DNA of 63,927 bases, filler included, from Stramenopiles sp. TOSAG23-6 (GCA_900128565.1; 10 parts of 10 records of this genome joined end to end with filler, not necessarily neighbours in it); one strand, 5' to 3'. Positions 633-63,927 are shown, numbered from the whole stretch's first letter. A program made the numbers and translations. The notes: a model not told the origin generated them from the sequence alone.

Positions 633-3171
633 TTAGAAAGCACCCTTAGCGCTTGCAACATTACTTGTAGACTCACACATCAGCTTCTTTACAACTTCAT
701 TGAATGCATTCCTTTCTATACGTTGTCGTCGGGTTGTAAGTTCATTAAGTTGTATATCAAATGCATGGATAGCTTTCTTAATTTCTTCATTCATTTTATC
801 CTCCGCTTCTTTCAGAAGTGTATTGAATCTAGTTCTTTCTTCCAATACATCAGAGCGAAGATCGACACGTGCCTGTGCTAGCACACGAATTTCCCTACTG
901 TCATCATATGTTGCATGTAATGTCTTGATGATAGAATCATCATCCTTTGTGTATGCTTTATTTACATTGTGATCTTCATTGCTCTGTGTTACTGTGGATA
1001 TATGTGGTGCTTCAAAGGTGTAGCGACGTGTTGGTGATGGTAACTGATGATTGATACATTCTAAGAAGCAATTATCATCCTCAAACGTGTTCAGCTCTTT
1101 TTTTGTTTCATTAAATAAAAATGATTTTGCATTCAAACAATTTACGCCACTAGCATCATCCTTCATTACCACTGTGGAACTATTCACCAATGGGACAATC
1201 GTGCTGATATTTCCTTCATTATTTGGCTGTTTCTCAAAACTTTTAGAACTTTGAATAGCGGTACTAAATGTATTGGCACTTTCAGAAGTTTGACGTTCAG
1301 TATCACTTTCATTAAAAACATTCAAAGGTTTTTTGACAGCTTTTTCATGTACATTCTCATTTGTTGAAATATTTTTCTTTTGTGATTGCGTCGCTCGTTT
1401 TTCGCACCATTTATCGAAAAGCTTATCTGCTGTTTCCACAGCGTTTCCTTCTGGTGTACTACAGCCAAGATTCAGTTTTCTTATATTTTGATTGATTAAT
1501 TTAGGCGCTTTCAATATTTTTCTTACTTTTGACGATTGTGGAGCCTTTGCATTGATCGAAATAACCGATGTTGATTTTCGAACTTTACTTGAGAATGCCT
1601 TCCAGCTTTTTACACTACTGATTGCCCGAGGGTGTGGTGGTGGTGGTGTTTGTGGTGCTACATTTACGTTTAATAAATATATNAAATTTGAAGAAAAAGT
1701 TAGGTACAAAATTGTGTTCAAAAACAATCAAAATTCATGATGAAAAAAACGCACCCTCAAGCACTTATTCGTTTTCTTTTTGACCTTTTTTGCAATATTT
1801 TTCTTTTGTTTTTCAAGCACGAGATCTTTTTTCTGAGATGTTGCATTTACACAATTCGTTGTAAGAATGGTATACCAAATATGAGAGCCACGTGGCATTT
1901 TTTCTTTTTGGAAACAAACTGCTTCACGATACAGCATCTCATATGCTTCGGGAGTGATTTTTGTAAAAGGTGCAGTAATTTTTCTATATTTATAATTCCC
2001 ATCTTTTCCAGAAATTCCTTTTACTTTAGTCAGATTTTGAACTCTTTGGGATTCCGTTTTTCGTGTCTTTTCCATTGATGCTAACAATGGTTTCAAAATT
2101 TTGGCTAGTCCTTTTATTCGCTTCTTTTTTGATACATTCGTTTTTATTGCGTCTAAATTACCCAATCTGTATCCGGTCAATTTGTCAATTTGAACTTTAA
2201 GTTGAATGCCATCTTTTGTTGCGTCTCTACAATCAATTGGCAGTGATACGAAATTACGAAGTAGTGAAATCCATGTATTTTTGAAAAATATTTCAAAAAA
2301 AAAATCGTTAGGTACAAAATTTCGTATAAACAAATAAATTCGAATTTGAAAAAAAATAAAACATACATTTATCCGGTTCACCATTTGCTTTGCCTAAACA
2401 CTCATGCGTACTACAAATTGTCTTTTTTTTACTTGTACTTTCGGCAATAGGCTTATGTGATTCTTCCTTAGGTGTAGGGTTTTTAGGGTTTGAGTCCAAA
2501 GTCTCAGAATTAGGGTTAGGGTTTGAGTCCAAAGTCTCAGAATTATTTGTAGAACTAATGGTTACATTACTTGGCGTTTTGCCCAATACATCAAAAGTAC
2601 TAACATGAGCGCCCATAAGGGACTCTGTATTTTCTATTTTTCCTTGCGTCACATTCTGGAGTATTTTATCCGAATCGAGTTCAGCCATAACGGCCCGTAA
2701 TTCTTCGATCTCCATGGAAGATACTAAACTGTTACGACGTTTTCTTTTCTTTTTCTTCTTTTTCTTTTGATTTTTCTGACTAAGCTTTTCGAGTTTCCCC
2801 CCTACATTAAGTAGCTTTCTATTCAATTCATCATTTGAGTGAAAATGATCTTGTTGGCGATTAATGATGGAATTATTAGAAGAAAGCGGTGCTCGAAGTT
2901 CACCACTTTCTTTCAAAGCCGCGGTATTGGTATTCCACACAGTATCATTTTCATCGTTAATATTTCTCTTATGTTGAGGATCACGCTGTCCATGTTGTTT
3001 CGAATTCTTCGAAGTTTCATCTGCAACGTCGAGTTGAAAGAAACTAGGAGGATCCGGAATAGAATCAATATCAAGTGGACTAGCATCAGTTGTTGTAACA
3101 TCTCCAATAGAGCTCTCTATAGACATATCAACACTCATGTCCATACTTACATCACTGATCGAGGATGTCAT
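633..3171 (-). CDS. hypothetical coiled-coil/low-complexity protein, 3 exons (3171-2367, 2272-1755, 1661-633)
   Basis: Three consecutive minus-strand ORFs join in frame (EPDK-W-ISLL; KCLR-VAPQ) after removing two GT-AT elements. Confidence 0.75.
1662..1754 (-). mobile_element. GT-AT introner-like intron (93 nt)
   Basis: AGG|GTGCGTTTT...TTTTGTACCTAAC...GTAAAT|GTA; removal joins two ORFs in frame. Confidence 0.7.
2273..2366 (-). mobile_element. GT-AT introner-like intron (94 nt)
   Basis: AAAT|GTATGTTTT...TACGAAATTTTGTACCTAAC...AAAATACAT|GG; frame restored. Confidence 0.85.
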
Positions 3172-3463
3172 TCACAACTATGTGATGCAAAGACGTTAAA
3201 TGCACTGGAAAAAGTGAATCTCGCAATCAAAAGACGACGAAGAGAGCGTGAGATTATTTCGATTCTCGAGAGAGAGTTTGAAAATGATGGCTTTACTCTT
3301 AAAATTTTTGTTTAAAATTTTATTTTTTTTGATTGCCGATTGCAGGCAGGTTTGTCGGTTGGTTGGCCTCGTTTTAGTAACCGTTTTTTCAACTTATATT
3401 CCTACGTACCATCATTTGATTAATTCATTGTCAAGGGTTTCTTTGTTGTAAATTTATTCATCG

Positions 3464-6400: not shown

Positions 6401-7347
6401 AGTTGTGGTGTTGAGATCGTTAGACTTCGCAAAGCTTTTAGATTAAAAGAAGAAGAAAATAAAAAGCTCACAACTCAAATAAATCATCGGGAGGACGAAG
6501 ATGATGATATAGTAAATACACTCATTGAAGATATTAACAATAATGGTAATAGTAGTAACACCAATAGCTTCGAGAAGAAAATTTCGGTATGCAATCTCCA
6601 CCCAGAAAATGCAATCCATTACGCCCGAGTAATTGCTCGGAAATACGATGGGAGTCAAAAAATGAATCTTGATCTCACTCGTCGATTGCACATGATGCAA
6701 AAAGGATTATTAAAAACGAAAGGCGTGAAAGGTCGTTTAATTGAACTTGAAGGTGCACAATCAGAAGCGCAACATTGTATTCAGAGATTACAACATGATA
6801 ATAGCAAAGTGAAAATTCTTCGAAATACTGTGTACGTTTTCATCACATTTCAATGTTGAATTTATTTTTTTATACGAAATTCTGTACCTAACAAAAAAAT
6901 CAAATTTTTGAAAATATTTTGTCACGATACATGAGGACTCAAGAGAAAGTGATCAGTAAATTACAAAAAATTATAGAGAAACGAATTAAAAATACCGCAA
7001 TGATCCATCCACCAACTGTCCCTGACGATAACGAGTCACCAAGTGAATTATCAAAGAATTGGTCAAACGCACTGAAAAAGATAGACTCAAAAGTAATGGA
7101 GCAAGGAGCTGATGATGTTGATGGTGTTTCAGGCAATATAGTTAATCCTAGTGGTAATGCGTCTATAGAAGTGGAACACTTAAATGCACAGTTAAAGGCA
7201 AAAGATGATCGTATTAGTGTTTTGGAAGATCAAATGACTAAAACAGCCGAGGAAGCAGCAGAAGAATTAGCCGAGCTAAAACTTCAAATTATGGAGCTGC
7301 AAATGGGCGGAGGAGGAAGCAGCTCTTCCGACGATGAAAGCTTTTGA
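3464..7347 (+). CDS. C2-domain and coiled-coil protein, CCDC33-like; exons 3464-6831, 6933-7347
   Basis: N-terminal C2-like regions; C-terminal LIDKLMKEVERRADAIRSCGVEIVRLR and RNTVRTQEKVISKL coiled-coil segments resemble CCDC33; joined across one GT-AT intron. Confidence 0.65.
4430..4730 (+). repeat. coding tandem repeats (DKTNEAKSDEVKQ-type units, then 15-bp EDEKK units)
   Basis: Repeated GAAGATGAGAAAAAA and GAAGCAAAATCAGAT units visible directly. Confidence 0.85.
6832..6932 (+). mobile_element. GT-AT introner-like intron (101 nt)
   Basis: ACTGT|GTACGTTTT...TACGAAATTCTGTACCTAAC...CACGATACAT|GAGG; gives T-V-R-T-Q-E-K. Confidence 0.85.
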
Positions 7348-7426
7348 AAAATAAACTAATAATATTAAAATTGTATGCTATAAAAATATTCGAAGCTAGA
7401 ATTAATTAGATTTACTTAGATATTTG

Positions 7427-11367: not shown

Positions 11368-11748
11368 AGAAGATACATCGAAAGAAAACGAGACAAGAGA
11401 AGAAACAAGAGAAAAAAGCAGCAAAACAAGCTAAACAATTAGCGAAACAGAAAGCTAAAGATGCCAAGAAACTTGCAAAGGAGCAAAAAAAACTTGCAAA
11501 TGAACAAGCAAAGCAAAAGGCTAAAGAATTACAGGATGTCAAGGACGAACTCGAAGCGGCAGAGCGTGCTATTATAAATGGTGCCAATACTACTCAAATA
11601 CAAATGGGCAGAGGCAGAGGCAGAGGCAGAGGTAGAGGTAGAGGTAGGGGCAGAGGTAGAGGCAGGGGTAGAGGAGGTGGAGTATCTCGATAGAACTAAA
11701 TCATAAGCATTAGGATTGACTGTATTTTTAATAAACGAATCGATTTAT

Positions 11749-14685
11749 TTACTTTTTAATTTTACGTTTCTTCTTCTTTCTACTATTAACATCATCTTCA
11801 TCTTTTTTATTTCCAACTAACTCTAATAATACTTCATCACGATACGCTTCTGATTCCTTGACGCNGACCCTTATCATAATTTTGTCAAATACACCAATTT
11901 TCTGTCCATTTCTTGATGACAATGCTAAATTTTTCTCATCAAGAGTCCAATCATTTTCCTCCGTAGAGCGTCGGCATTGTCCAGCTTCTTCAGATTGTTG
12001 TTTTGATAAATCAGAGCCACCAAGTCGTACAAAACCTTCAAATCCGTATTTTAGAACTATGACACCAACACCAGATGCTCTTACTCGTAAGACAACACCT
12101 TCAACTATCATTGGGTTATCTTTAAAAAATACGCGTGTATACAACTGTGTGGAATCGCGACCCGCCATTTGTGCTGCATAACTACGTTTGTTAATAATTT
12201 CACAAACATTGTGAATGCGGGCTTTATCATTATACATTGCGGGCATTGGCTCAATACCAATACTAGCAGCTAGCATACGATGTGCAACAACATCAGCATA
12301 GCGACGAATTGGTGACGTAAAATGTGTATATATTGGCGTTGCGAGACCATAATGTCGGTATTCATCGGGGGTTCTTTCACCGGAACAAAAGTATACTGCC
12401 TGATTCATGCACCGAGTAGCAAGAATCCGAATAATTTTATTGAACATTGGATCATCATCACGAACTGCCTTATCAAGAGATTGTGCAAGAGCGAGCGAAG
12501 TATCAACTTTAAGTTCCACTCCAGCAATACTAGCAGCGTGTAATAATTCATCGAATCGACGACGTGAGGGTTGAGGATGTCGTCGTAGTAAAGCAAATGA
12601 CGGAAAAAAATCTTTGATTTGTTGAGCCACAGCAATATTTGCTAAAAGCATAAATTCTTCAACAACATGATTGGCTTCTACCATTTGATACATTTTCACT
12701 GATGTCGGATCATTTGTCTCTTCATTCATTTGAAATCTAACTTCAGGTGAAGCTAAAGTAAGAGCACCAGCTGCAATACGTCGAGATCGCAAAGTTCTTG
12801 ATATTTTTGCCAACAAGCGAACCGATGTAGCGATATCACTTTCACGCGAAGGATCATCCAAAAACTCCTGCGCTTGTCCATAAGTAAGACCTGCACGGGA
12901 ATGTACAATACTACGATGAAACTTTATACCATCTGGACCAGGAATCTTTTTTAAGGTTACCGGATCTAACTGCCATATACATGAAAATACAAAACGATCA
13001 ACGTTTGGTTTCACACTGCATAACGTTTCAGTGAGTAAACCTGGAAGCATATCAAGTCTCCGTTCTACAATATATGTTGTCGTAGATCTTCGTTTTGCTT
13101 CTTCGTCAATGGCCGTTCCAGGACGAACAAAATAAGTCACATCTGCGATATGGACTCCACATTCAATATTACCATTTGGCAAAACTCTGGCATGAAGAGC
13201 ATCATCTATATCTTTGCAGCCTGGAGGATCTATACTACATACTGTAAGATGTCGAAGATCTACACGATCATTCGCATTTTCTGCAGTAATTTTAAAGTCA
13301 GGTGGTGGTAAACATTGTAAGACAGCAGGAGAAAATGCTTCAGTTGGGATTTCATGTTCTAATAGAATAACTTGAGACTCAATATCCTTATCTCTAACAT
13401 CTCCAATTGTCCGCACATAATGGCCATCAGGGAAGCTACTAAAAACACCCCACGAATCTAATGCAACTACAATCCATTTCCCTTCAAGAATATCCCTTTG
13501 ACGAGTTTTTATAATTGTATTTGGAAATCGTGAGTCTCGGGGGATAAAGACGGCGCGGTCTCCAACAATAAAGTCTTCTTTTTTAATTGTTCCACATAGT
13601 TGACGCCAATTCCGTTTTACTACAGAGATTACACAACCATACACATCTGTAGAATCTTCAGATGGTTTTTGGGATATTTGTTTTGAGTTTTTATCTTTAG
13701 CATCAACGTCACCATCGATATCCATTTTGTCATCTTTGTCAATAAGCTGAATAATACAAATATCCCCATCAACAGCTCGGTTTATATGCTCCCTACTAGA
13801 TAATTTGATAAGAACCTCTTCACCATCAGATGATTTCATTACTGCTGTTGCTTCACGCCAATGGTATTTGTTCTGTCGCAAAACAGCTTCAACTAATGTT
13901 CCATCTTTCAACCCAGCAGTAACTGCTTCTTCAGGCCAATAATCTCTGAACTTTGCTCCATTCTGTAAATGACCTTTCACTGAGGATTTCTTCAATTGTT
14001 TATTTCCTTTATTTTTCGTTTTCTTCATACCCCGACGTTTATTACTCCCACTCGCAACATATGTGGCAACAAGAGGGACTAATTCTGGATATTCATCCGC
14101 CAATTTATCCACGAAATTTTGCACGGTGGACGCTTCAACACCGTCCATCTTTGCTCTATGTAAATTTTCTCTGTCATCCGTCAAAAGTAAAATATTCAAT
14201 ATACCTTCAAATTTTTTTGCATACCAAGAAGCAACTCCACGAATCAAACGGTCATTGTAATCGTTAGGTGATTCATCATTCTCCTGATCGGCATATGTAG
14301 ACCGGTGATGTTCGTTAGCGAAAAGGAAAAAACGACGAGTATTATCTCTAATGAGAGCAACTAATCTCTTGTAAATGCCAACGTCGTTGTGTTTCACTTC
14401 AGCCAAAGTAGTCTCTGGAATAATAGCATCACATAAAGGAGCACAGTTTTGCTCTAATAAATCTATTTGGTGTAATGCAACGTTTGTATCAATTACTAAG
14501 TATCGTGAGTTAAAAGGTCTCTTGGAGAGCACTGGTACAGCATGACTTCCCATATCAGATTCGTCAACTAACTCCGAGCCACAGTTTATATCATCTCTTA
14601 AATAATGCTCACGGCACACTCGAATCATTTTTTGTGAACGAGTTGCAATGTCAATAACTTTGCAGCGCCATAGATCATTCGACAT
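11749..14685 (-). CDS. DIS3: exosome catalytic subunit DIS3/RRP44 (mirror copy)
   Basis: REHYLRDDI, PIN domain (VIDTNVALHQ), RNB motif SIDPPGCKDIDDALH, HFTSPIRRYAD; ATG MSNDLW. Confidence 0.93.
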   Translation of the reverse strand: MSNDLWRCKVIDIATRSQKMIRVCREHYLRDDINCGSELVDESDMGSHAVPVLSKRPFNSRYLVIDTNVALHQIDLLEQNCAPLCDAIIPETTLAEVKHNDVGIYKRLVALIRDNTRRFFLFANEHHRSTYADQENDESPNDYNDRLIRGVASWYAKKFEGILNILLLTDDRENLHRAKMDGVEASTVQNFVDKLADEYPELVPLVATYVASGSNKRRGMKKTKNKGNKQLKKSSVKGHLQNGAKFRDYWPEEAVTAGLKDGTLVEAVLRQNKYHWREATAVMKSSDGEEVLIKLSSREHINRAVDGDICIIQLIDKDDKMDIDGDVDAKDKNSKQISQKPSEDSTDVYGCVISVVKRNWRQLCGTIKKEDFIVGDRAVFIPRDSRFPNTIIKTRQRDILEGKWIVVALDSWGVFSSFPDGHYVRTIGDVRDKDIESQVILLEHEIPTEAFSPAVLQCLPPPDFKITAENANDRVDLRHLTVCSIDPPGCKDIDDALHARVLPNGNIECGVHIADVTYFVRPGTAIDEEAKRRSTTTYIVERRLDMLPGLLTETLCSVKPNVDRFVFSCIWQLDPVTLKKIPGPDGIKFHRSIVHSRAGLTYGQAQEFLDDPSRESDIATSVRLLAKISRTLRSRRIAAGALTLASPEVRFQMNEETNDPTSVKMYQMVEANHVVEEFMLLANIAVAQQIKDFFPSFALLRRHPQPSRRRFDELLHAASIAGVELKVDTSLALAQSLDKAVRDDDPMFNKIIRILATRCMNQAVYFCSGERTPDEYRHYGLATPIYTHFTSPIRRYADVVAHRMLAASIGIEPMPAMYNDKARIHNVCEIINKRSYAAQMAGRDSTQLYTRVFFKDNPMIVEGVVLRVRASGVGVIVLKYGFEGFVRLGGSDLSKQQSEEAGQCRRSTEENDWTLDEKNLALSSRNGQKIGVFDKIMIRVXVKESEAYRDEVLLELVGNKKDEDDVNSRKKKKRKIKK

Positions 14686-14986
14686 GACGGCAAAATGGAG
14701 CCTACAGTGAGCACAAGACAGTACAATGTTTAGATTAAATAAATATTGAGCACCTAAGCTCGAATTTTGCGTGCTGACTTGAAATTTTGACACGTGGCAC
14801 TTGAAATTTGAATGCTTGAAATCTTTGTCGAAATCTTCGAAAATATAATTTTAAACGTTGAACGACCGAACGACTACTCCCATTCATCTTCAATTCTGAG
14901 ATCTCCCAATGAGATAGCATCTTGATTGATTGGCATACTAAAGAAATTATCTAGCAGTCTATTCAATAATAATAGATGATATAACA

Positions 14987-16663: not shown

Positions 16664-16753
16664 GTATGTTTTATTTTTTTTTTAAACAAAAAAATCGATT
16701 TTTTTCGTACGAAAAAAATCGATTTTTTTGTTTAAAAAAAAAATAAAACATAC

Positions 16754-18430: not shown

Positions 18431-18731
18431 TGTTATATCATCTATTATTATTGAATAGACTGCTAGATAATTTCTTTAGTATGCCAATCAATCAAGATGC
18501 TATCTCATTGGGAGATCTCAGAATTGAAGATGAATGGGAGTAGTCGTTCGGTCGTTCAACGTTTAAAATTATATTTTCGAAGATTTCGACAAAGATTTCA
18601 AGCATTCAAATTTCAAGTGCCACGTGTCAAAATTTCAAGTCAGCACGCAAAATTCGAGCTTAGGTGCTCAATATTTATTTAATCTAAACATTGTACTGTC
18701 TTGTGCTCACTGTAGGCTCCATTTTGCCGTC

Positions 18732-21668: not shown

Positions 21669-21723
21669 ATAAATCGATTCGTTTATTAAAAATACAGTCA
21701 ATCCTAATGCTTATGATTTAGTT

Positions 21724-22566: not shown

Positions 22567-22786
22567 AGAAGATACATCGAAAGAAAACGAGACAAGAGAA
22601 GAAACAAGAGAAAAAAGCAGCNNNNNNNNNNNNNNNNNNNNNNNNNNNNNNNNNNNNNNNNNNNNTTAATTAATTAANNNNNNNNNNNNNNNNNNNNNNN
22701 NNNNNNNNNNNNNNNNNNNNNCGTACGAAATTTTGTACCTAACAAATTTAAGTTTTTTTTTTTTGAAATATTTTTCCGAAATACAT

Positions 22787-45228: not shown

Positions 45229-45431
45229 TTGAAGANTNCANGAATCAGACTNNNNNNNNNNNNNNNNNNNNNNNNNNNNNNNNNNNNNNNNNNNNTTAAT
45301 TAATTAANNNNNNNNNNNNNNNNNNNNNNNNNNNNNNNNNNNNNNNNNNNNAAAAAAAATTAAATTCGAAATTTGTTAGGTACAAAATTTCGTACGAAAA
45401 AAACAATTTGAAATTCATAATGAAAACGTGC

Positions 45432-45511: not shown

Positions 45512-45611
45512 ATGTATTTTGGAAAAATATTTCAAAAAAAAAGACCTAAAATTTGTTAGGTACAAAATTTCGTACGAAAAAAAATTCGAATTTGAAAAAA
45601 ATAAAACATAC

Positions 45612-47972: not shown

Positions 47973-48237
47973 GATCCTTGTATTATATGTTACTTGTCAT
48001 TACTAGAAACAGTAGCCGCTTTCTCATAATAATGTTTAAATTGATTCTTCGGCAATGAAATTGAAGTAATACGTAAATAATAGCATATTTTTTTTTAGTA
48101 ATGGGGTAATGGGATGTCAAAAAAAAATTTGATTTGATTTTTGAATGACGTCATTTCGATTTTGACTCGAGTCAAAATGGTTGTTGTGACAGACACGTTT
48201 GTTCGACGCACATAATATAGTCAAGGTCTATTTTCCG

Positions 48238-49995: not shown

Positions 49996-50468
49996 TAAAA
50001 ATTATGGAGTGTAAAAATAGAGTGAAATATATATTTATTTGTAGTACATCATCGTATGTATTGTTTGAAGATGAGTTTTTGATATCATTGGATATATAAT
50101 CATTAAAGAATTTCGTAATTAAATTTTTAATGTACATGTGTTTGGTAGATTATTTTACTATAATATCATACACAAACTACACCTATGAAAAAATTAGATA
50201 ATTATATTTTATAATAATTCCGGAATTATCATTCTTAGACCCAGAGTTTGTGGGTGTCAAAAATGAGTTATTCGTGGTTACCGGGTAATAATGAATTCAA
50301 ATTTTCAAATTTTCAAACTCGAATCTCTTTTTCGCGCTCGACCTCGAGAGGGAAGAAAAAGAATTCAAACAAAGGTAAATATCGTGTGACACTCTCCTTC
50401 AGAAAGTGTACTAGTTTTTCTTTTTCATTGCCCAACTGTAGACTTGGATAGTGGTATATTTATCTGCA

Positions 50469-53359
50469 ATGTTTAGCTGGACTCATCAAGGTGGTGACTC
50501 TGTCCCAGTATTTACTCCAAAGGGGAAAAACCCAACCGAAAATTGGGACCTGTCTGGTAATGTTGTTAAAGTGTATGACCGAGTCGCTCGTGGGTATACA
50601 TACGAGTGTAGCGGTGGCCCTTCCACATCAATGCGTCTACCCGCAGATTTGCGTTCGTCTCTTGGTTTGACGCAGTCCTTTTTAACTTTACAAATACTCG
50701 TTCCATCGACTACCCCATTTTCAATGGACATTGAAGTACAAGCAGAAGCTACACAGGAGACTCAAGCAAAACTTCAAAGTCCAGAAAAAATGGTATCTAC
50801 AATCAAGCGCCGCCCAGTTCATTTGAAATTCTCAACTGCATTCAAAGATTCTAATTTTAATGGACTCCACGCTCAAATACCTCTTTCAAAGATACCTCGT
50901 AATAGATGGCTAAACTTGTGTTTAGATCTGCCTGACTTAGTTTCAAGTTGTTTTTTACACAGTCCCAATTTTATCTCTTGTGCAGCAATTACAATTGGTG
51001 CAACATGTCGACTTCGACGAATATTTACTATGCGAGATCCTCCTAGTGTTGCACATCAAACCTTGTGGTTATCTGACAAAGAAAATATGCAGTCTTTGGA
51101 TGAAAGAAACCCTAACCCTAACTCTACACAAGATTTTTCTGAAACATATACAAATATTGGATATATTCCAAGGCGTTATCAATTTTCACCCGATGCGAAT
51201 TCGTCTACTATTATTATGAATTCAAAGGTATTACAAAAGTCTTTCACGTCAAAAGATACAAAATTAAAAAAAAGAAACCAAAAGAGTCCAAAAAATCCTA
51301 CCCCTACAAACCCTAACCCTACAAACCCTAACCCTTCGCAAAAATCCAATGGAACAAAATTAAAAGGTGTAACTATATCTGCACTTCGTGGACTTGAAGC
51401 TGCTCGGAAGCGGCGAGATTCCCTCTCAAAAAAAAAACGAAACTCTGCTGGGCTTGGCACAAAATTTCCAGGTTTTGGTTCAGTGCCCATTCGGAAACCG
51501 AGACGAAACCCTAACCCTAAAGCAAAAAGGAGTTTACATAAAAAATTTTCAAATGTAAAAAAAAAGACTGTTCCTACAAATTCTACAAATCGTACAAGAA
51601 AACTCAAAACATCAGCAATTGAAAAAAATGAAAAAAATGAAAAAAATGAAAATTTGAAGTTTGAAGGACGAAAAAAAAAATTGAAAGAAATGAATGAAAA
51701 TTTGAAGTTTGATACAAAATTTAGTACAAAATTTGGTACTCTGTCGCCTCACGTAGAATGGAGGAATAGAATGCCAACAAAAGAGTCAAACGATTTTGAA
51801 TTTTCTACAGCTGACAATTCTTCAGAAAAGTCACAAATTCGAAATTCAATAGAATTTAAGACAAATCCTCAAGATTCAATTTCGAATTTATCTCTTAGTA
51901 CTCCAAATATGACTACTACTCAATCTACTCCTACTGCAAGACCACCTTTAACAATATCATCAAATAAATTTGGTGTGTTTGAAATTGGTAGTCCTGAATA
52001 TTCAGAAATGTTGATGAAACAGGGTTATAAACCTATTATAACTCCAGTGTTGGGTTCTTCCCTCTGTATGTTTTCATTTTTTTTTTTTTACCATTTGTTT
52101 TTCGTACGAAATTTCGTACCTAACGTTTTTTTTCAATTTTTTTTTTTCACAATACATATTCAAAATATACGAAATCACCCAAGAAGGGTACAAATGATAA
52201 AAAACTACATCATTCTCCATTATTAACTTTAGACGATTTAACAAATCCAAATTTCATTGACCAAAATGAAAATATGGATAATGGTAATGTTGATGAAGGA
52301 AAGCCAAAGTTAAGCCCTAAATATAATTATTCAAAAAATTCAAGTTATTACGAAAAAAGGATGAAAGTTCTAGAAGAAAAAAAAAGAGAATTACTTGATT
52401 TAGAAAAAAAATTAGAAATGCAAAAAACGAAAATAGGTGATAATTTGATGAATGTAGATATAAAATCAGATTTCCATAATGATAAAAACAAATCAAATAA
52501 ACACAATAAAATAAATGAAACAAATGAAAGTATTTCAGAACAAGACATTTTACATGATGTTTTTGCCAACATAAGTATTAAAAATAGCAAATATGATATT
52601 AGAAATTACATGAACAAAAATATAAAGTCAGAAAAATATGAAAAAAGTGGAAAAAGTGGAAAAGATGAAGATACAAAAATGTCCCGAAACCTAATCAGAA
52701 AAGAACCCTCGAAAGAAAATCATAACCCTAATAACACTAATAATCTTAATAGTACTCAAAATCTAATCCAACCTATGAAAAAAATACAAGAGCAAACTGT
52801 ACATCAAAAAGTCCATGAGGATGACATAAAGCAAAAACCACAGAAAACTTTTGTACATTCCTCAAGTGAAACAAAGGTAGAAACGAAAGGATCAAACATC
52901 GTTAAGGAACAAAACTGCTTTCATCAAAAGCCTTCGACTCATCGAACATTTGAAGAAAAACTTAGAGAATTACATGAGAGAACTTGTACAAGACTTGCAA
53001 ATACATCTAGATTACAAACTATGCATCCAAACACTATAAGAATTCAACATCGGTTACTGCAAAATAAGGAACTGAGTAGTACTGGCAGTGACTCTCAGCA
53101 CATTCAAAATTCATTACGATTTGGTACAAATTTAATTTCGAATTTGTCAAGTCCTGCCCCTTTGCCTAATAGTGTAGCTCTTATTAAACATTCTAACCCT
53201 AACCCTAATCTCATTCCTAACTATAATAAAAGACATATTCTTGGAAAAGACAATCAAATGACCACAAATAGAACAGAACTGGCTGAGTTGATGTTTGATC
53301 CATTACTTAATTGTTATTTTAATCCTGTTACAAATCAATTTTTCAAATTAAAAAAATAA
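50469..53359 (+). CDS. CFAP20DC: CFAP20-domain-containing protein (C3orf67-like); exons 50469-52065, 52158-53359
   Basis: N-terminal CFAP20/DUF667-like domain (SLGLTQSFLTLQ, WLNLCLDL, CRLRRIFTM) and C-terminal LMFDPLLNCYFNPVTNQFF; GT-AT intron 52066-52157. Confidence 0.8.
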
Positions 53360-53701
53360 AATTCGAAATTGAGAATTTTCTTTTGCAAAAGCCATTTTAT
53401 TTATAGGTTCTAGTGAATTTACACACTGGAAAAATATATAACCTCTGTTGGTTCATGATGTAGTACTTTCAGTTCATTTGCATTGCATTCAATCACGAAA
53501 TATCCGTAATCATAATTATTCAATTCTTTTTTCTCGGAGGTTTTTTTTCTTGTCGAGGAGGTATCTGCCAGACTGCGACGTCGACGTGGTATGTATACGT
53601 AATACAAGAATTCAAAACACAATTCAAAACTGTGGTTACACGCGTCGTGCGAGTTTGGAATACTCCAACTCTAAAAATATTATCTAAAGAACTCTGGGAA
53701 A

Positions 53702-55344
53702 ATGGAAGAAATAAGCAGCAACCTTATCCATACTTTTGAACAGACCAAAATTCCTCCATCGCAAATTCGGTGTACCTCGTCCCTGAAACCGTTATCTTGG
53801 GTTCTTCAATATCGCGAAGATTACAATAGTTTTCGCCGAGGCGCTAGTTCAGGCTCTCAAGGTGAAATTAATTACCCAAAAAATGGTTTCGTTGACATAA
53901 TGACGAAATATGAATGTTTTTCTGAAAGTCCAAGACGAAAGTTTCTCAATAAGAATCGTAATCATGAGGCGTGGTCAATACAGCGTCCTAGAAAAATATC
54001 AATGGACGATCATTTCGACTGGATACGTAGGGAGATACCTGCTATTCAGAAGGTATCACAATTTAATTTTCGGAAGCGTTATCGGATGTTTCGACGAGGA
54101 GCATACAGAAAAAGTCGAACTTTAGAACATTTTGTAGGTTGGGAAAATGAATATAAGAAAGGAATAAAAAGTAAAGTTTCAAGTAGATCGACTATCGGTA
54201 TTTTTGATTCTGGCATAGGTGGATTAACCGTATATAAAGAAATTCGTCGTGTATTTCCAAAGAATGACATTGTTTACTTTGCAGATATGTTGAGACAACC
54301 TTGTTTGTTGTCACTATAATTTCACTTTTTTTTCCCATGAACATTTCGTACCTTAGCTAACAAATTTCAAACGTAAAACACTTTTTTTTCCATAGAACAT
54401 TTCGTACCTTTGCTAACAAATTTCAAACGTAAAACATATTTTTTCACAATATATGGGGTAATCAAAAGCAGTCTACTGTAGCGTTTTATTGTCGTGAAAT
54501 TATGAATTTTTTAAAGAGGGAAAATTGCACAGTAATCATAGTTGCATGCAAATATCATATATTTTTTACACTCAGATTATAACAAATCCTACACCAAGTC
54601 ATCTTTTGCTAATTTATTTCTAAAAACATGAAATATTACACACAAATTATCACAGCCACAGCAGCAATATTTGATAATAGAGTAAATTTTCTTGAAGAAT
54701 ATTCCAATATACCAATTATAGGAACAATTCCATTTGCTTGTCGAGAGGCTCTATCATTAAAGATGAAAAGAAATAACCTAAATAATAAGATGACTAGAAT
54801 ACGTCACATTGGAGTCATTGCAACTGAAGGTACTGTTACATCTGGTGCTTATTCTCGTGCATTGACTGCATTCGCCACCGCTGATGGTCGACCGGTGCTT
54901 GTGACTGAAATGCCATGCCCAATGTTCATGCATATTGCAGAAAGTGGAATTATCATGACTCCTGAAAATATCGAACTCGCATCAAAATATTTATTCCCAG
55001 TACAACTGAAAACAAAACCAAAAACTCACAAAAAATGCAATACATTACAATACCCAATAGATACTATAATATACGGTTGTACTCATTACCCGGTTCTCTC
55101 TGAACTATTGGAAGATTTGGTATTTAAAACGTTTCAACGGCCGGACGTCAAATTTGTTGACCCTGCAAACGCAATGATGAATGATATTAAGAAAGCTGTC
55201 TTTGTGGGAAATAATGAAGATCTAATGAATGTGAAGGGTAATACTCGATTTTGTGTCAATTCTTTAGTGGATCGTTTTGGAAAAAGTGCATCAAGAATTC
55301 TTAAAATGGATGTAAGAGAACAAGTCGAATTAGTAAAATTATAA
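53702..55344 (+). CDS. murI: glutamate racemase (MurI-like) with N-terminal extension; exons 53702-54302, 54455-54551, 54651-55344
   Basis: IGIFDSGIGGLTV, D..RQPWG, IIVAC-N-TATA (after splicing), IGVIATEGTV.SGAY, IYGCTHYP, FVDPA. Confidence 0.85.
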
Positions 55345-55368
55345 TGAATTTTTTTTTTTAAATAAAAA

Positions 55369-56415
55369 CTAAATAACAAAATTTATGATTTTGTCCGCCG
55401 ACCAATGTACTTGTTTAATATAATATTTAATCAGAGATTGGGCGCCTGAAGAAACAAATAATAGAAAAGGAAACGGAGTTACAACGCGAACGATCGGGAT
55501 CTCGCACGAAGAATCAAAATGGGGAAAGAGGAAGTTGATTATCGTAAACGTTTATTAGGGTTGGGGAAAGAAAAAGTTGTTTATCGTAAACGTTTCTTTT
55601 AAACTTGTCACGTACCAGTCGTCTGTAACAAAGCTAATACATGTAATGAACGCTCAAGAAATACTTTAACACGTGTTCTTGCATCCATATCTAAATAAAC
55701 AGAATGCTTTCCATTATTTTCCACTCTTGAATCACAAACTTGAAATCCATTAGGTACAAAATTTGTATGAATAGGATTTTCTATACGTGTTCTAGATGCT
55801 AAAGCGATAAGAACATCTCCTTGATGGGTCGGATAAAAGACAACATATTGTGAAAAAATATTTTTGTTTTTTTGGTTGAAAAAAAAAAATCATTTAGGTA
55901 CGAAATTGCAAAAAAAAAAATGAACTTTGAAAATTTGTTAGGTATAGAATTTTTTTTTTACTAAAAAAAAAAAAAAATGATTTTTTTTTTTGAAAACCTA
56001 CACAAAAGGTAATTGTATGGAAGGAAATATTTTTGGTGAATATAAACACTCAATAAATGAAACTAAAAGTTTTTTTGTTTTAACCGCATCTTCTGATGTT
56101 ACAAAATCATCTCTGTGCCGTGTACTATGATATACTGTGAAAAAAAAATTGTTTTTGTAAAATTTGTTAGGTACGAAATTTCGTACGAAAAAAAAATCGA
56201 AATTCAAAATTGAAAAAAAAATAAAACATACATATATATTTTCCAACATGGAGCAAACATCTTCAGCCCAATACAAAATTTTCCGAAACAGAGCCGCTTT
56301 GAGATTCATTTCAGATGGATTTTGTGTTTTCTTTTTCTTTGAGGCAGCAACAAGAACAGGACCAAGAATAGATGGAACTATTTGTGTGTCTGAGGTTTGA
56401 AGAAAAGCCAATAAC
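55369..56415 (-). CDS. hypothetical protein (5' partial); exons 56415-56232, 56129-56002, 55842-55616, probably 55445-55369
   Basis: Frames join across element introns 56130-56231 and 55843-56001 and a likely canonical GT-AG intron 55446-55615. Confidence 0.5.
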
Positions 56416-56472
56416 AAGTATTGTGAAAAAATATTTTTTTTTGTAAAATTTGTTAGGTACGAAATTTCATAC

Positions 56473-56506
<34 letters not shown>

Positions 56507-56706
56507 NNNNNNNNNNNNNNNNNNNNNNNNNNNNNNNNNNNNNNNNNNNNTTAATTAATTAANNNNNNNNNNNNNNNNNNNNNNNNNNNNNNNNNNNNNN
56601 NNNNNNATTTTGGAAAAATTTTTAAAAAAAAAACTAAAATTTTTTAGGTACAAAATTTCGTACGAAAAAAAAAAAAAAAAAAAAAAAATGTCTAATGAAA
56701 ACAAAC

Positions 56707-57959: not shown

Positions 57960-58147
57960 GTATGTTTTTTTTTTTTTTCATAANTTTTTTTNNNNNNNNN
58001 NNNNNNNNNNNNNNNNNNNNNNNNNNNNNNNNNNNTTAATTAATTAANNNNNNNNNNNNNNNNNNNNNNNNNNNNNNNNNNNNNNNNNNNNAAAAAAAAA
58101 TAAAAAAAAAAAAAAATTACAAAAAAAAAAAAATTAAAATTACATGC

Positions 58148-59299
58148 ATAACTGCTCATCGTACCCATATTTGGATTTAAAAGATTTTTCTTTTTCAAGT
58201 AAGTTTTAACAAGAAGTAGGACATGTGTAGCATGTATACCAAAAGTATCCAAATCTCTTTTGATATAGTCAACTGTGTTTGAAACGGAACTCTCGGAAAA
58301 ATTGTTGTTTATCGTAATGTCGACTGTAATACCGTTATCACGTTTAAATATCCTCTGAATGTGTAAAAAAATATGTTTTATATTGTGTTGTGGGATATTA
58401 GTATTATGTGTGTAGAAACGTAGAAATGTAGAAATGTAGAAAAACATATCGAAGCATTACAAAGAGGAAAAAAATGAAATATATAATGATATATATAATA
58501 TAATCATATACATAATAATATATATGGTGATATATATAATAGTAAATTAGTTGTTATGATAAATACGATGAATAGATTGAAAAATTACCAATAATTGATG
58601 TAGTTGTCCCACAACGTCTATTTCTTGAGAATCTTGACGTAGATGACGTTCTACAGTTTGACCTAGATGATGGTCTACAGTTGAAACGTCAACTACAAAA
58701 TCTGCATCTGAATGACCAGGTAAAAAAAGACCATTTGCAGCAGAACCGTATATTTTCACTGTAGCACTTGGCCATATGTGCTTTTGAATAGTATTTTCTA
58801 TTAAATCACGTGCATCGTGTACTTTTTGTAATTGAATCGTTTGTTGACGAGTGATTTCAACGAGAATTGGTTGTAATTTTGTATCCACTGACCTTGTCAA
58901 TAACTTGTATTGTTGTTGTTGTTGTTCTTGCAGTTTGGCATCAAATTCGGATTCTAATTCGTGCAAAGATGTGGCTTCCATAAAATGCTCTTGAACAATT
59001 TCGTTTAAACTATTTTCCAACTGATTAATCAAAACTAGTTTTTGTTTTGCTGCATCTTTTAACATCCAAAGCCGAGTGTTGAAAGAATCCTTTATTACGG
59101 TACTGCCATCAATTGAGTCTAACATCAATTGGATTCGTTCACTCTGAGATAGAATCTGGTTACGAATGTTGGACAACGGAGAATAATATGGTTGAAAAAC
59201 TGGACTTGATGGTCTTAGTCCATGTTGCATTGCTAAAGCAATTTCGAAAAAAGTACAAATTGTACAATATATACATATTAATTTTGTATTTACACTCAT
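58148..59299 (-). CDS. TUTase/non-canonical poly(A) polymerase-like nucleotidyltransferase (partial, exon structure uncertain)
   Basis: IYGSAANGL...SDADF, VDITINN and GTMSSY motifs. Confidence 0.65.
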
Positions 59300-59653
59300 T
59301 GTATTTGTTTATAACCGAATATATTCAAGTATATATGCTGATGGGAGTGTTGTAACAATATTATTCGTATTTGTATACTATTGTATGTACCAACAACAAC
59401 AAACTCTTAAAAACTGTAAAGAACATATGGACTTTTTTGATTTTCGATTTGAGATGTGACGCTGGCTCTCGAATCTNNNNNNNNNNNNNNNNNNNNNNNN
59501 NNNNNNNNNNNNNNNNNNNNTTAATTAATTAANNNNNNNNNNNNNNNNNNNNNNNNNNNNNNNNNNNNNNNNNNNNCCAACCCCCTGACCCACAAAACCC
59601 CCGCCCTCTTGACCCTTTTAAGGGCCTGAGAAAGCCAGGCCGCACAAGGTTAT

Positions 59654-59725
59654 AGGCGCTACCGGGGCTTGAACCCGAGACCTTCCGGTTAACAGCCGGA
59701 CGCTCTACCACTGAGCTATAACGCA
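59654..59725 (-). tRNA. trnN: tRNA-Asn (GUU)
   Basis: Cloverleaf: AGCTCAGTGGTAGAGC D-arm, TCCGG-CTGTTAA-CCGGA anticodon arm, GGTTCAAGCC T-loop. Confidence 0.92.
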
Positions 59726-60001
59726 CAAGCCCCCACTAGAGCTAGGGCGACCCACGAGTCCAGTGCGGTGGCAGGGACTGTTAGGGCCCTCAAGTGAGCC
59801 CCGGTAAACTTAAGGAAATAAAGGGGAGATCACCCCTATAAAAGAAGCTTAAGAACGGGGGTACCCCAAGACCTGCCGTGCTGTAGCCCAAACGCACTCC
59901 CCACCCAGCAGCAAAGGCCTGGGAGGGCGGGAGCATAGGTTGCAGGGCCTAAGCCCTAACGGCCCACGAGCTAAAGCCCACTAAAAGGCAGAATAGGCCA
60001 A

Positions 60002-60072
60002 CGCAGGTAAGAGGAATTGAACCCCTACTCCCGGCTTTGAAGGCCGGTGTGCTACCGTTACACCACACCTGT
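60002..60072 (-). tRNA. trnW: tRNA-Trp (UCA), reads UGA as Trp
   Basis: CCGGC-CTTCAAA-GCCGG anticodon arm, short variable loop, GGTTCAATTCC, G73. Confidence 0.88.
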
Positions 60073-60154
60073 GACGTGAGGGAAGGCCAGTGGCGTAGAA
60101 AACCTTTGACGCAAATAACTCAGACCCCTCTACCAAAGGCCCAGCACCCAGCCC

Positions 60155-60306
60155 CTAGAAGGCGAACAGGGTGGGGAAGGCCATCGCCAGCCCGGGATGG
60201 CATAAATAAACATCTGCTGCTTCTCGCCGGGTTTGCGCGATAGTCCTATGATGAGAGGCCCGAACACGGTACCGATCCCTACTCCAGGCCCGGCTATGAA
60301 GACGGC
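60155..60306 (-). pseudogene. atp9: atp9 (ATP synthase subunit c) fragment, 5'-truncated, with internal deletion/frameshift
   Basis: [36 protein letters not shown], then [11 protein letters not shown] in a shifted frame. Confidence 0.75.
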
Positions 60307-60384
60307 TCATGTATTTCTAGATAAGGGGGGAGCAAAGGTAGGGTGCGGCACGCCTTTGCTCCCCCCTTATCTAGAAATACATGA
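60307..60384. repeat. perfect 32-bp inverted repeat with 14-nt loop
   Basis: TCATGTATTTCTAGATAAGGGGGGAGCAAAGG / CCTTTGCTCCCCCCTTATCTAGAAATACATGA. Confidence 0.95.
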
Positions 60385-60829
60385 TAAGGATGAAGCATAT
60401 GAGGCACCCCAGAAGGGCGAGCACCTCTAGCTGGGAAAAACCGTAGGGCCGTAGGATGGCTTCTTCCAGTATGAAGAAGGCCAGGAGGGCGAGAAAAAAC
60501 ACCCGCCGCCTGTGGTCTAACGACCATCACCACCAGCTTCACCACCAGACGACATACACCACCCGCGCTACTACGATCAACCCCAACTCCAGGAGCCAAT
60601 ACCCGGCACGGGTTCTAAGACGGCCCAGGTAGGCCTTCATGTAGGCCACGCACGCTTTTAGTTTCTGACTAGGCGAGAGGCCCACAAGCTCTTTCTTTAT
60701 CGCGATCAAATAAACACATCCACCAACAAAAAGTACTAGTAAAGCAATCACACAGTGAGCCGGGTCCCTTGATTGGAGCGCATAAACAGCAACTAATACG
60801 CTTGCGAGGTAAAGGAGCGCTGTAAGCAT
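60371..60829 (-). CDS. nad6-like hydrophobic ORF (152 aa with UGA=Trp); only the N-terminus is nad6-like
   Basis: MLTALLYLASVLVAVYALQSRDPAHCVIALLVLF resembles Nad6 S.NPVHSVL.L; two in-frame TGA in a Trp-rich stretch. Confidence 0.5.
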
Positions 60830-61135
60830 ATAACGTAGGCGTAGTATTACGCCACCCAGGGCCAAACCCGAGCTCTGGGCGCACCCCAAACCTCAGGTTT
60901 GAAGACAACTGGCCTTAATTCTTTTAAGTCAGACCCCCAACGCAAGGTNGCGCGGACCACNNNNNNNNNNNNNNNNNNNNNNNNNNNNNNNNNNNNNNNN
61001 NNNNTTAATTAATTAANNNNNNNNNNNNNNNNNNNNNNNNNNNNNNNNNNNNNNNNNNNNTTAATTTTTTTTTTTTTTTGTAAAAAAATTTCGTACCTAA
61101 CGATTTTTTTTTTGAAATATTTTTTCACAATACTT

Positions 61136-62385
61136 TTAATCTACAACAAAAGAGAATTAATAAAGAACAATGGCAAAACTCACATACATTACTTCAAAAA
61201 GCCTCTATAGGAACATTGGCAAAAGTTCATCATATTTGCAGTACAATAGCCAGCATAATTCAACTAGATATACAACGTGAAATTCGATATTTACAAAGAG
61301 TAAAATCTAAAAGAAATAAAGAAATTCCGTCATTGGGTCATTGTGACATTGATAATAACTATAAAAGTATCGATACATTGAATGATTCAATACAGTTAAT
61401 CCATAATCAAGGAATGAAATATGTACAACTGATATCTAAGAAAATAAGTAAAGAAACTTCGAAAAGTCACCGAGGCAATATCTTAAAAAAAACTAAATCT
61501 CGTGCTGATTTGCTATTAGAACGCCGAAGTCCATTAAAAGTTAGAAAAAGAAGAAAAAAAAAACGACCAAGAAAAGATTTAAATGATTGTAAAACGGATC
61601 AAAAACGACCAAGAAAAGATTTAAATGATTGCAAGGATGACTCAGGCATTGACCTTTTCAAACGTCGCAAAACAAGAAAGGAAGAAATATCCAACAATGA
61701 TCAAAGTAAGAATAAAAATAAGAAAGAATCTTATTATGATGAAAATATTGAAAATGATGTGAAATTTGGATCACTTGGAGAAAATTCATCTGATAAAAGA
61801 ACATGTCCGTTTCAATGATAAATTTCAAATATTTTTTTTTTCGTACGAAATTCTGTACCTAACAAATTTATGTTTTTTTTTTCTAAAATATTTTTTCACA
61901 ATACATCAAACTCATCGAACTGTAAAGAATTTTCACCAACGAATGCTAGAATAGAAGAAATACAAAAAATACATCAATCTAATGTAACTAAAAGTGCTAT
62001 AAACACCCAAACACTTGCAATAAGTACAAGTACACTGTCATCTAGTAATCCTAACCCTAGGATAAATGTTATAGGAAATCAAATGAGCTCAATTATTCTT
62101 GAACCAAATGAAAACTCTACACTATCCAGTGATGTACAGAGTAAAAGACTCGATACCAAAACAAATGTATCGAATGATTATGTAAAAAATGGTACGAATC
62201 CTTCACTCCGTACATCACAAACAGAATCTGAAACCCAATCTAAAAATAACCCTAACCCTAACATGAAAAATACTACTGAAAAAGATCTTTTACGGTCTTG
62301 TATTCGAACCGAATTGAAACGTTTGTTACCTAAGCGTATCACTCTTGATTATGATTACTTTGAGCGTATATTTTGTGTAGCTCAT
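61136..62385 (+). CDS. hypothetical low-complexity protein (partial); exons 61136-61804, 61907-62385
   Basis: Frames join across GT-AT intron 61805-61906; flanked by elements at both contig ends. Confidence 0.65.
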
Positions 62386-62599
62386 GTACGTTTTCATTAT
62401 GAATTTCAAATTTATTTTTTTTTCATACGAAATTTTGTACCTAANNNNNNNNNNNNNNNNNNNNNNNNNNNNNNNNNNNNNNNNNNNNTTAATTAATTAA
62501 NNNNNNNNNNNNNNNNNNNNNNNNNNNNNNNNNNNNNNNNNNNNTCGTACGAAATTTTGTACCTAACGATTTTTTTTGAAATATTTTTCCAAAATACAT

Positions 62600-63875
62600 A
62601 ATCGACAGTTTGAAAGAAAGATTCCTGGAGAAGGTAGTTCTTTAGCGAATGCTGTGAAGCAATGTACTGTACGTTTTCATCATTCATCATTCAAATTTCA
62701 AATTTATATTTTTTGTAGTACATTTTGTACCTGACGATTTTGTTTTTTTGGTCAAAAAAAAAAAAATATTTTTATACAATATCTGAAGCTGCCCGTTCAA
62801 TATTTTTTGCAGAACTCACCCAAGTTGGTCAAAATGTCTTAGCTCAAAAACCACCATCCAGTCTTGGAGTTTCTACTGGCCTTTCTCATGTATTGGCTAA
62901 TCTTTCAGCTGTTTTAAAGGTGCATGTATGTTTTATTTTTTTTTTTAACAAAAAAATCGAAATGTTTTTCGTACGAAATGTTGTACCTAACGATTTTTCT
63001 TGAAATATTTTTCCAAAATACATTCTCGTTCACTTGTATTTGCTACAACTAATGATCGTATAGAGAGTTTCACAGATACACTAAGTGCTTTTGTAGAACC
63101 TTTGTTGCAATTGTATATTTTATTTTTTTTCAATTTCGAATGTATTGTTTTTTTTCATACGAAATTTCGTACCTAACAAATTTTACAAAAACAAAATATT
63201 TTTTTACAATATATGTGTCGAATGGGAAAGAAAAGTTTACAACCAACAGATTCTGCAATATATGCTATTAATAATATTTTAGCAATACAGAATGCTCTTG
63301 TACCTTATGATTTCACATCATTTTGGGTACAGAAATTAGCAGAAGAGGCGTCATCGTATGTCGACATTGTGGTTGATGAAGAATCAAGAAGTGTTTTAGA
63401 GAAATGTTCGTTTTCATCATTCATTTCAAATTATTTTTTCATACGAAATTTTGTACCTAAACAAAAAACAAAAAAGATTTTTTTTGTGACATCTTCGTTT
63501 TTTCATCATTCATTTCAAATTTCAAATTTCAAAATTATTTTTTTGTACCTTACTCCAAAGATTCCTTCTATGATTTCAAATAATATCATTTTTTTTGTTT
63601 GACGTTTAATAGACTAACAAAACAATCGATTGTGACATATTTTTTCAAAAACATGTGATATTTTCGAAAAATTACAATGTATTGAGTCTAAGGATAGAGA
63701 TATTCCACTGAGTACACTCCCTAGAATGAGTGCAAGTAATGTAAAAGATGCTGTACAAAAACTGTATTCTGCATTCATACAAAATTCACTACCTGAGTTT
63801 GATGGTATATTGAGTCCAAGGCTTCGTGGAATGGTACGAACCGGCTGTCAGGATGCTCTTGCAAGGGCTCATCAT
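62600..63875 (+). CDS. COG6: conserved oligomeric Golgi complex subunit 6, C-terminal part; exons 62600-62668, 62785-62925, 63024-63112, 63215-63405, 63655-63875
   Basis: Spliced: PPSSLGVS...VLKVHSRSLV...FTDTLSAFVEPLLQLCR...AIYAINNILAIQNALVPYDFT...LPEFDGILSPRLR; six element introns. Confidence 0.75.
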
Positions 63876-63927
63876 GTATGTTTTATTTTTTTTCAAATTC
63901 GATTTTTTTTCGTACGAAATTTTGTAC

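Follow-up and report, generated by a model that had tools for sequence, protein, structure and literature searches.

A putative introner-like family of mobile introns with U-ending 3' splice sites in the nuclear genes of a protist

How are protein-coding genes expressed when they are interrupted by short, related inserts that begin as ordinary introns do and end in T, mostly AT, where an AG would be expected? The question is raised by a stretch of DNA of 63,927 nucleotides (nt) from Stramenopiles sp. TOSAG23-6 (GCA_900128565.1), here called the window, which is made up of ten eukaryotic contigs (five of ~11.2 kb and five of ~1.38 kb) joined by linkers of the form N44-TTAATTAATTAA-N44. Its genes, of eukaryotic nuclear type, are read with the standard genetic code (stop codons over 20 window genes: TAA 13, TAG 4, TGA 3). 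The presence of one diverged repeat family at many loci points to introner-like mobile introns, and we think it likely that the inserts are such a family, with the usual 5' and branch sites and a U-ending, mostly AU, 3' site. All statements about splicing made below are drawn from sequence, reading frames, orientation and homology.

The number of related inserts far exceeds expectation. The motif TGTACCTAAC, with at most one mismatch, occurs 34 times, compared with 2.47 expected and a maximum of 7 in 100 shuffles, and an nhmmer profile gives 85 matches at E<=10 and 29 at E<=1e-5. The profile was seeded with 14 examples from an earlier sequence-only reading of this DNA, which match by construction, and its matches include one mirror-image duplicate and one inverted internal fragment. 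The resulting catalogue holds 22 complete and 10 cut genic copies, the cuts lying at contig ends or at the centre of a palindrome, and the genic copies are spread over at least 14 genes; besides these there are one copy in an apparent 3' untranslated region (3'-UTR) and about five intergenic fragments on both strands. Copies are ~93–159 nt long, with one of 249 nt, and pairwise identity among them is 51–92% (median 70.7%; nearest neighbours 71–92%). The family is old enough for divergence and has at least two subtypes. All 32 of the 32 genic copies are in the sense orientation relative to the host gene. The sequence-only reading had described related inserts that interrupt coding sequences in the orientation of the host, and the catalogue agrees with it; the 18 examples that it located all begin with G-T and finish in T on their strand. 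Nine of the 20 contig ends fall inside a family copy, which suggests a high copy number in the genome.

A metagenome scan with the core motif found the family at one further locus, L001, an unrelated 3.2-kb marine contig with one family copy. Scans of prokaryote genomes and viral contigs returned 70 and 19 single matches respectively, none of which, L001 excepted, the profile accepts as a family copy; two weak partial profile matches in these scans had E values of 1e-4 and 5e-4. These data bear on the view that the inserts are never removed at all, being artefacts of amplification or assembly or recent insertions that kill their genes. Contig 2 is a perfect palindrome and many of the contigs are short and joined by N, as such a view would expect, but the copies are diverged (51–92% identity) at distinct loci, one copy lies in the independent metagenome contig L001, and the host exons are open and homologous on either side of seven junctions, which leaves it scarcely credible.

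Removal of the inserts has exact consequences for the host reading frames. If the G of GT and the final T are taken as the first and last bases removed, the longest open frames are united in 18 of 19 introns, and as this would occur by chance in 1/3 of cases each, p is ~3e-8 by our own arithmetic. Single open frames of 783, 1264, 610, 941 residues and so on are obtained. The introns that join frames include those at 2273-2366 (-; GTATGT...ACAT, flank at, phase 1), 39700-39806 (+) in a leucine-rich repeat (LRR) gene, 46790-46882 (-; flank ag), 52066-52157 (+) in the CFA20-domain gene, 56130-56231 (-; ...TATAT), and two in the ATXR5-like SET gene at 22906-23003 (+; ...AAAT) and 23264-23393 (+; a rearranged copy, GTAGGT...ACAT). 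The diverged intron at 1662-1754 (-; GTGCGT...AAAT, flank gg) is in frame with phase 0/0; its downstream exon is of low complexity, so homology leaves the 3' boundary unfixed.

At seven junctions, four in COG6, two in the ATXR5-like SET gene and one in the glutamate racemase gene, the joined protein matches its homologues without a gap. A MAFFT alignment of COG6 with 13 homologues has no gap at any of the four junctions, which are those of 62669-62784 (+; flank ct, GTACGT...ATATCT, a variant end), 62926-63023 (+), 63113-63214 (+; flank tt) and the tandem or composite intron of 249 nt at 63406-63654 (+; GTTCGT...AACAT); the second and third also unite frames. Removal of the 249-nt intron rebuilds a split codon for a conserved Cys, and in the Pfam COG6_C profile exon d ends at position 353, five residues follow, and exon e resumes at 359. 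Exon 3 of the SET gene aligns to positions 112-132 of chain 5va6_A and ends at 134 (two residues extrapolated), exon 4 covers positions 135-193 and exon 5 covers 194-228. Both the intron at 23470-23567 (+; flank ct), which falls at 134/135, and the composite intron with an inverted internal fragment at 23745-23883 (+; ...ATAT), at which the numbering is continuous at 193/194, satisfy frame and homology together. The same is true of a variant with an internal duplication in the racemase gene, 54303-54454 (+), whose removal rebuilds P-W-G at the P-Y-G position, the match to chain 1b73_A running through 38, W at 39 and 40 onward. Thus the frame is restored almost always, as the sequence-only reading had claimed. 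Its further claim that removal rebuilds conserved motifs holds for the SET, MurI and COG6 junctions but not for the DEAD-box helicase gene, where the intron at 37308-37410 (+; ...TCAT) joins the frame within an unconserved linker and rebuilds no motif.

The nearest downstream in-frame AG lies at +3 and +6 in two of the 19 introns and at +18 or beyond in the rest. The two are 6832-6932 (+; GTACGT...ACAT, flank gt), with its AG 3 nt downstream, and the diverged family-like intron without a CTRAY box at 34967-35063 (+; GTACGT...AACAT), with its AG at +6; at 61805-61906 (+) there is no in-frame AG within 200 nt downstream. Homology excludes downstream AGs at the SET, COG6 and MurI junctions. There is no usable AG at the ends of the inserts, and exact excision is required by frames and homology.

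The anatomy of the element was derived from 28 5' ends and 27 3' ends, with the copy from L001 included; in four copies cut on their 5' side the 3' end was set by family alignment, not by frame. The element begins with GTAYGT, with G at +1 in 28/28 copies, T at +2 in 27/28, A at +3 in 22, Y at +4 in 26, G at +5 in 27/28 and T at both +6 and +7 in 28/28. The single departure at +2 is a C, in the copy with a GC donor (GCACGT) at 45352-45431 (-), which is cut by a contig start; a normal donor, occasionally GC, had been proposed earlier and describes these 28 ends well. A palindromic sequence, TTTCGTACGAAA, stands immediately upstream of TTTTGTACCTAAC within the element. The box TACCTAAC is found 33–50 nt upstream of the element end and is followed by a T-run and then by C-A-C-A-A-T-A-Y-A-T. 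In 18 of the 19 entries with a CTRAY motif the branch-like A is 33–50 nt from the end, the distance being 96 nt in the rearranged copy 23264-23393; the motif is absent from two copies.

At the 3' end only the final T is invariant. It is present in 27/27 copies, and the penultimate base is A in 23, C in one, G in one and T in two, so that the family ends in AT 23 times, CT once, GT once and TT twice, and never in AG or AC. The end ...CACAATAYAT given in the sequence-only reading is accordingly correct as to a terminal T, which is always present, but not as to AT, since 62669-62784 ends in ATATCT and 55843-56001 (-; GTAGGT donor) in ATATGT. Information content is 2.0 bit for the final base of the intron and only 0.30 bit for the exon base that follows, which is G in 14/27 copies; in the 3' exon it amounts to ~0.3 bit or less. 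On the 5' side the exon carries T at -1 in 24/28 copies (C in 2, G in 2; 1.27 bit), A at -2 in 17/28 (0.45 bit) and C at -3 in 12/28. Similarity among copies thus reaches the exon borders and, apart from the enriched -1 and -2 positions, does not extend into the exons, and the splice-site positions (G+1, T+2, G+5 and the terminal T) are kept even in diverged copies.

The main argument for splicing is that all 32 genic copies are in sense and that a 5' splice site and a branch box, which excision from DNA would not need, have been kept. The internal eliminated sequences of ciliates are short inserts in coding DNA with a repeated dinucleotide at their bounds and are excised exactly, and the inserts in the window could be removed from DNA in the same way if the assembly represents an unprocessed genome. 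The short length of the elements, a repeated dinucleotide at the bounds in 15/23 copies and the requirement for exact excision would all fit. Excision of that kind is independent of orientation and does not select for a sense bias of 32/32 or for 5' splice-site and branch signals, whereas both are found here; moreover, the genetic code is standard, there is no ciliate affinity among the Dis3 matches listed, and a 10-kb stretch (46501-56500) shares 26–46% of its words with three independent seawater metagenome runs (a comparison of words only). Removal at the DNA level is on this evidence most improbable. We infer instead removal at the RNA level by the major spliceosome, in the register GU...U.

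Which bases are removed depends on the register. If the 5' cut falls before the G of GTAYGT, as in known spliceosomal introns, the 3' cut falls behind the final T on the evidence of frames and homology; in no register but GT...(A)T are both termini constant. The sequence-only reading had preferred GT...AT on the ground that the base before GT varies while the last T is fixed, and the counts, C or G at -1 in 4/28 copies and a terminal T in 27/27, are in line with this. An unlikely alternative keeps RNA-level removal of the same elements and moves each of the two cuts 1 or 2 nt upstream (TG...CA or AT...AC-like); of the duplicated dinucleotide, the upstream copy would then be lost and the downstream one kept. 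The frequent T at -1 (24/28) and A at -2 (17/28) would suit it, registers shifted by 1 or 2 nt yield an identical mRNA in 15/23 copies (55843-56001, for instance, gives the same mRNA as GTGTAG...AT), and AT-AC is a known class of intron (PMC1557818). The shifted register would, however, have a 5' terminus that varies (AT, GT, CT, TT, AG, GG, GC, CC), the conserved GTAYGT would sit 1–2 nt inside the intron, and four of the 28 copies carry C or G at -1. Five junctions are informative as to register (1662-1754, 6832-6932, 23470-23567, 46790-46882 and 63113-63214), and their residues are unconserved or their proteins lack homologues; at 63113-63214 both L and M occur among the homologues at the junction residue.

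With the GT...T register, a relation between the two ends of the element becomes visible. The 2 nt before GT are the same as the last 2 nt in 15/23 complete copies, and both testable variant ends equal their own flank, CT/CT at 62669-62784, which must end in ...ATATCT for frame and homology, and GT/GT at 55843-56001; the last base but one thus changes together with the flank before the donor. Taken with a symmetric flank preference of the form C-AT-G (C at -3 in 12/28, and at +1 a G in 14/27), this co-variation points to duplication of a 2-nt target, the 3' cut probably being made two bases beyond the ACAATAY end. In a model reportedly proposed by Huff et al. 2016, a duplicated target supplies one of the splice sites.

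The mechanism that we propose is as follows. Short, non-coding, mobile spliceosomal introns would have multiplied in the genome of a protist, each copy bringing its own splice signals, with GUAYGU as the 5' site, UACCUAAC as the branch-site box, and a U-run. Its 3' end would consist of ACAAUAY plus two bases, usually AU, and these last two bases are probably a copy of a 2-nt target, mostly AT in a C-AT-G context. Pre-mRNA splicing would excise the element from the G of GUAYGU through the final U, with the 3' cut made after U, not AG, and would restore the host frame exactly; if the duplication holds, the element is removed along with one copy of the duplication. Some change in the proofreading of the 3' site at the second step would be needed to permit ligation after U. 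The family may have spread by DNA transposition or by reverse splicing. The fuller proposal, in which the major spliceosome routinely ligates after U and an introner has made GU...AU the commonest class, with a 2-nt duplication and a cut two bases past ACAAUAY irrespective of the identity of these bases (AU, CU, GU, UU), is tentative, and in our judgement the case for it falls slightly short of even.

Several points weigh against this account. RNA-level removal and the exact register are themselves inferences, and we know of no studied major spliceosome in which a U at the last intron position supports the second step. One copy, 45512-45611 (-) in the NCA2-like gene, is the sole failure of the frame test; it may be explained by a 1-nt assembly error in a T-run, by an alternative donor farther downstream or, for the following copy with its GC donor, by a cryptic donor upstream. 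The flank differs from the terminal AT in 8/23 copies, so later exon substitutions are needed for the duplication, and by codon reading the changes implied in those eight are synonymous in three, conservative in two and neither in three. An origin from DNA transposons is unproven: inverted termini are weak, consisting only of GTAT...ATAC in 11/22 copies, and no transposase domain was found in the open frames scanned within the window. The folding of eight copies gave z-scores of -2.3 to +0.25, and the ends pair in only one of the eight.

A further question is whether introns that end in AG coexist with the family. A T end is required by 22 complete introns of the window; one further intron is AT...AT, and another can have either an AT or an AG end. 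The AT...AT intron is a non-family intron at 54552-54650 (+) in the racemase gene, between VIIVAC and (N)TATAA; it runs from ATATCA to TTAT because VIIVAC-N-TATAA, which holds the catalytic C-N-T motif, must be kept, and it also ends in T but begins with A. The third kind is a non-family intron with a GTAATT donor in the Cid1-like gene, 58355-58588 (-), for which two in-frame ends are available, ...AACAT at 58373 and, 18 nt farther on, a T-run and ACATTCAG at 58355. A further intron start in the same gene, at 58092-58143 (-), reads gcat followed by GTAATT... and runs into the contig end; the gene thus uses GTAATT donors, unlike the family. A non-family intron on the plus strand of L001, with GTACGT, likewise has in-frame ...CACAG and ...CACTAT ends. 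Comparisons with PDB and Pfam favour neither the AT nor the AG end of the Cid1-like and L001 introns. The AG options resemble ordinary 3' sites and closely parallel the T-run and CACAATACAT of the family. We think that AG introns probably coexist with the family, and we regard the family end as a site of that kind in which T has taken the place of G. An AT end may characterise the element itself and not the introns of this genome in general. An altered 3'-site specificity throughout the nuclear genes, as the sequence-only reading had it, is borne out insofar as the inserts behave as introns without a usable AG; the AT...AT intron and the possible AG introns mean that a globally changed spliceosome does not follow.

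The AT...AT intron also bears on the possibility that splicing of the family falls to a minor (U12-type) spliceosome or to one like it. U12-type introns tolerate non-AG 3' ends, the box ACCTAAC resembles the U12 branch consensus CCTTAAC, and the intron at 54552-54650 starts with ATATCA, which is near the U12-type ATATCC. The 5' site of the family is GTAYGTTTT, however, and not RTATCCTT, and the branch box is 33–50 nt from the 3' end, compared with ~10–20 nt in U12-type introns. No small nuclear RNA, U11, U12, U4atac and U6atac included, was found within the window, which is a small sample of the genome. A minor spliceosome is a very unlikely agent. To our knowledge, U12-type non-canonical introns and U2-type AT-AC introns are rare in every described genome; the two resemble the family in being spliceosomal introns without a terminal AG (PMC1557818), and differ from it in 5' consensus and in the distance from branch to 3' end.

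According to PMC12130899, introners are transposable elements that are spliced from exons and carry or co-opt splice signals. The introners of Micromonas, Aureococcus, fungi and many aquatic protists described there are like the present family in that similar introns occur at unrelated loci, similarity stops near the exon borders, and the signals for splicing either belong to the element or are taken over from the target (PMC12130899). The survey reported there accepts only AG and AC as 3' ends and discards families with unfamiliar sites unless they are supported by RNA (PMC12130899). The family in the window differs in that its 3' end is T (AT in 23/27), outside the accepted AG and AC, and in its inverted termini of 4 nt or less. 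Long terminal inverted repeats were considered and rejected, as at most 4 nt was found, and an end-pairing structure was rejected on account of weak z-scores and ends paired in 1/8 folds. Our search of the open-access literature turned up neither a lineage in which GT-AT is a common class nor a report of introners in single-cell genomes.

Introns derived from miniature inverted-repeat transposable elements in Fritillaria borealis have non-AG ends and are removed by the major spliceosome. Most of their borders are of types such as AG-AC and AG-AT, and their 5' end is other than GT, unlike the 5' GT found here in 27/28 copies. The introner elements of Amoebophrya (PMC7789003) are again repeated non-GT-AG introns in a marine protist, with direct repeats of 3–5 nt across the exon/intron boundary, but they have no dinucleotide signature and carry hairpin-forming inverted repeats of 8–20 nt, whereas the family has a canonical 5' site and branch box, a fixed 3' T and weak hairpins. 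The nonconventional introns of euglenids and hemistasiid diplonemids share non-AG ends and a location in protist nuclear genes; they can base-pair, drawing their ends together, and they lack both GT and a conserved branch box and rely on extensive pairing of the ends (PMC12621601, PMC12501133). In the family, by contrast, the borders are conserved and the ends pair in 1/8 folds. Its weak folding sets it apart from the non-canonical introns of euglenids, diplonemids and Amoebophrya.

The remaining copies are cut or lie outside coding sequence. The first intron seen in the ATXR5-like SET gene is the 3' part of a copy, 22722-22786 (+), cut by the contig start, and a 3' part likewise stands at the start of the COG6 contig, 62545-62599 (+). 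The copies at 56416-56506 (-), cut by a contig end, and 61061-61135 (+), cut by a contig start, both end in ...ATACTT, their 3' ends being placed by family alignment. A copy with a GTTTGT donor at 56607-56706 (-) is cut by a contig start, and 5' parts are found at 57960-57991 (+; flank gc), 62386-62444 (+; cut by the contig end) and 63876-63927 (+; at the window end). A sense copy ending in ...ATAT at 39981-40075 (+), 4 nt past the stop of the LRR frame 38709-39988, is apparently in the 3'-UTR. Truncated fragments occur on both strands in intergenic or UTR space at 35241-35434 and 38131-38318; one pair lies between convergent genes, directly past the stop of an IFT20-like gene (named from its translation alone), and another separates the helicase gene from the LRR gene. 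Strict orientation and intactness are thus not kept by copies that lie outside coding sequence.

Contig 2 is a perfect palindrome in which 11368-16708 is the exact reverse complement of 16709-22049 (5341/5341 bases), and it duplicates the Dis3 and CAMTA-like genes. Its centre is inside the palindromic core (TTTCGTACGAAA) of one family copy, the 5' part of which is seen at 16664-16708 (+), and sub-threshold Rfam microRNA matches at 16641-16776 correspond to the hairpin of this centre. The CAMTA-like gene contains a family intron at 16468-16567 (+), and its mirror copy at 16850-16949 (-) is an artefact of the palindrome. The palindrome is probably an amplification or assembly chimera, and because of it the assembly resembles that of a single cell whose DNA was amplified.

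Genes in the window encode Dis3/Rrp44, a CG-1/ankyrin (CAMTA-like) protein, Myb+JAB and CFA20-domain proteins, an ESCRT-II subunit, a DEAD-box helicase, LRR and NCA2-like proteins, a Cid1-like nucleotidyltransferase, an ATXR5-like SET protein, COG6 and a bacterial-type glutamate racemase. An open frame at 27286-33948 (-), of ~2,220 residues with at least 13 IPT/TIG repeats, has no intron, and neither do Dis3 (1033 residues), Myb+JAB (894 residues) and an ankyrin gene (601 residues); intron density is low and uneven because several long genes are intron-free. The MurI-like glutamate racemase gene (53675-55341) stands in a protist contig, has an N-terminal extension of ~170 residues and carries two introns, which gives it the look of an integrated, possibly transferred, gene.

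The closest relatives of Dis3 in the protein database are 52–53% identical, and the named ones (Blastocystis, green algae, plants and animals) 38–47%; among the 120 matches listed there is no euglenozoan. Exon 636-1661 (-) had no match among database proteins of 188–599 residues, and the Cid1-like exon had none among longer database proteins; the organism itself is therefore not represented there. An atlas search placed it no more finely than Eukaryota. The 10-kb stretch also shares 5–11% of its sampled words with three seawater metatranscriptome runs, again as word sharing only, and further words with two small DNA runs, which are probably its source. We take the organism to be a marine protist, uncultured and uncertain in its affiliation. 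Read in reverse complement, L001 has telomere-like CCCTAA/TTAGGG words and a tandem repeat of ~60 nt at ~880-960 and 1230-1370, between two convergent genes. Contig 8 (59577-60960) has 55.7% G+C, compared with 28.5–37.9% in the other nine contigs, and holds no copy of the family; it carries tRNA-Asn(GTT) and a 73-nt tRNA with the anticodon TCA, which ARAGORN calls SeC although the long extra arm is absent. The contig may come from another genome, for example that of a contaminant or an organelle.

The 3' AG of major-type introns is among the most constant signals in eukaryotic gene expression. If the proposal is true, a lineage whose introns routinely end in U, with an ordinary 5' site and branch site retained, would be a natural experiment on how the 3' splice site is recognised at the second step, with Prp8, Prp18, Slu7, Prp22 and U2AF as the factors of interest for 3'-site recognition, and the concept of introners would be extended to a non-AG class. 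Gene finders that assume GT-AG would break most of the intron-bearing genes here, and contig breaks induced by the repeats fall inside genes.

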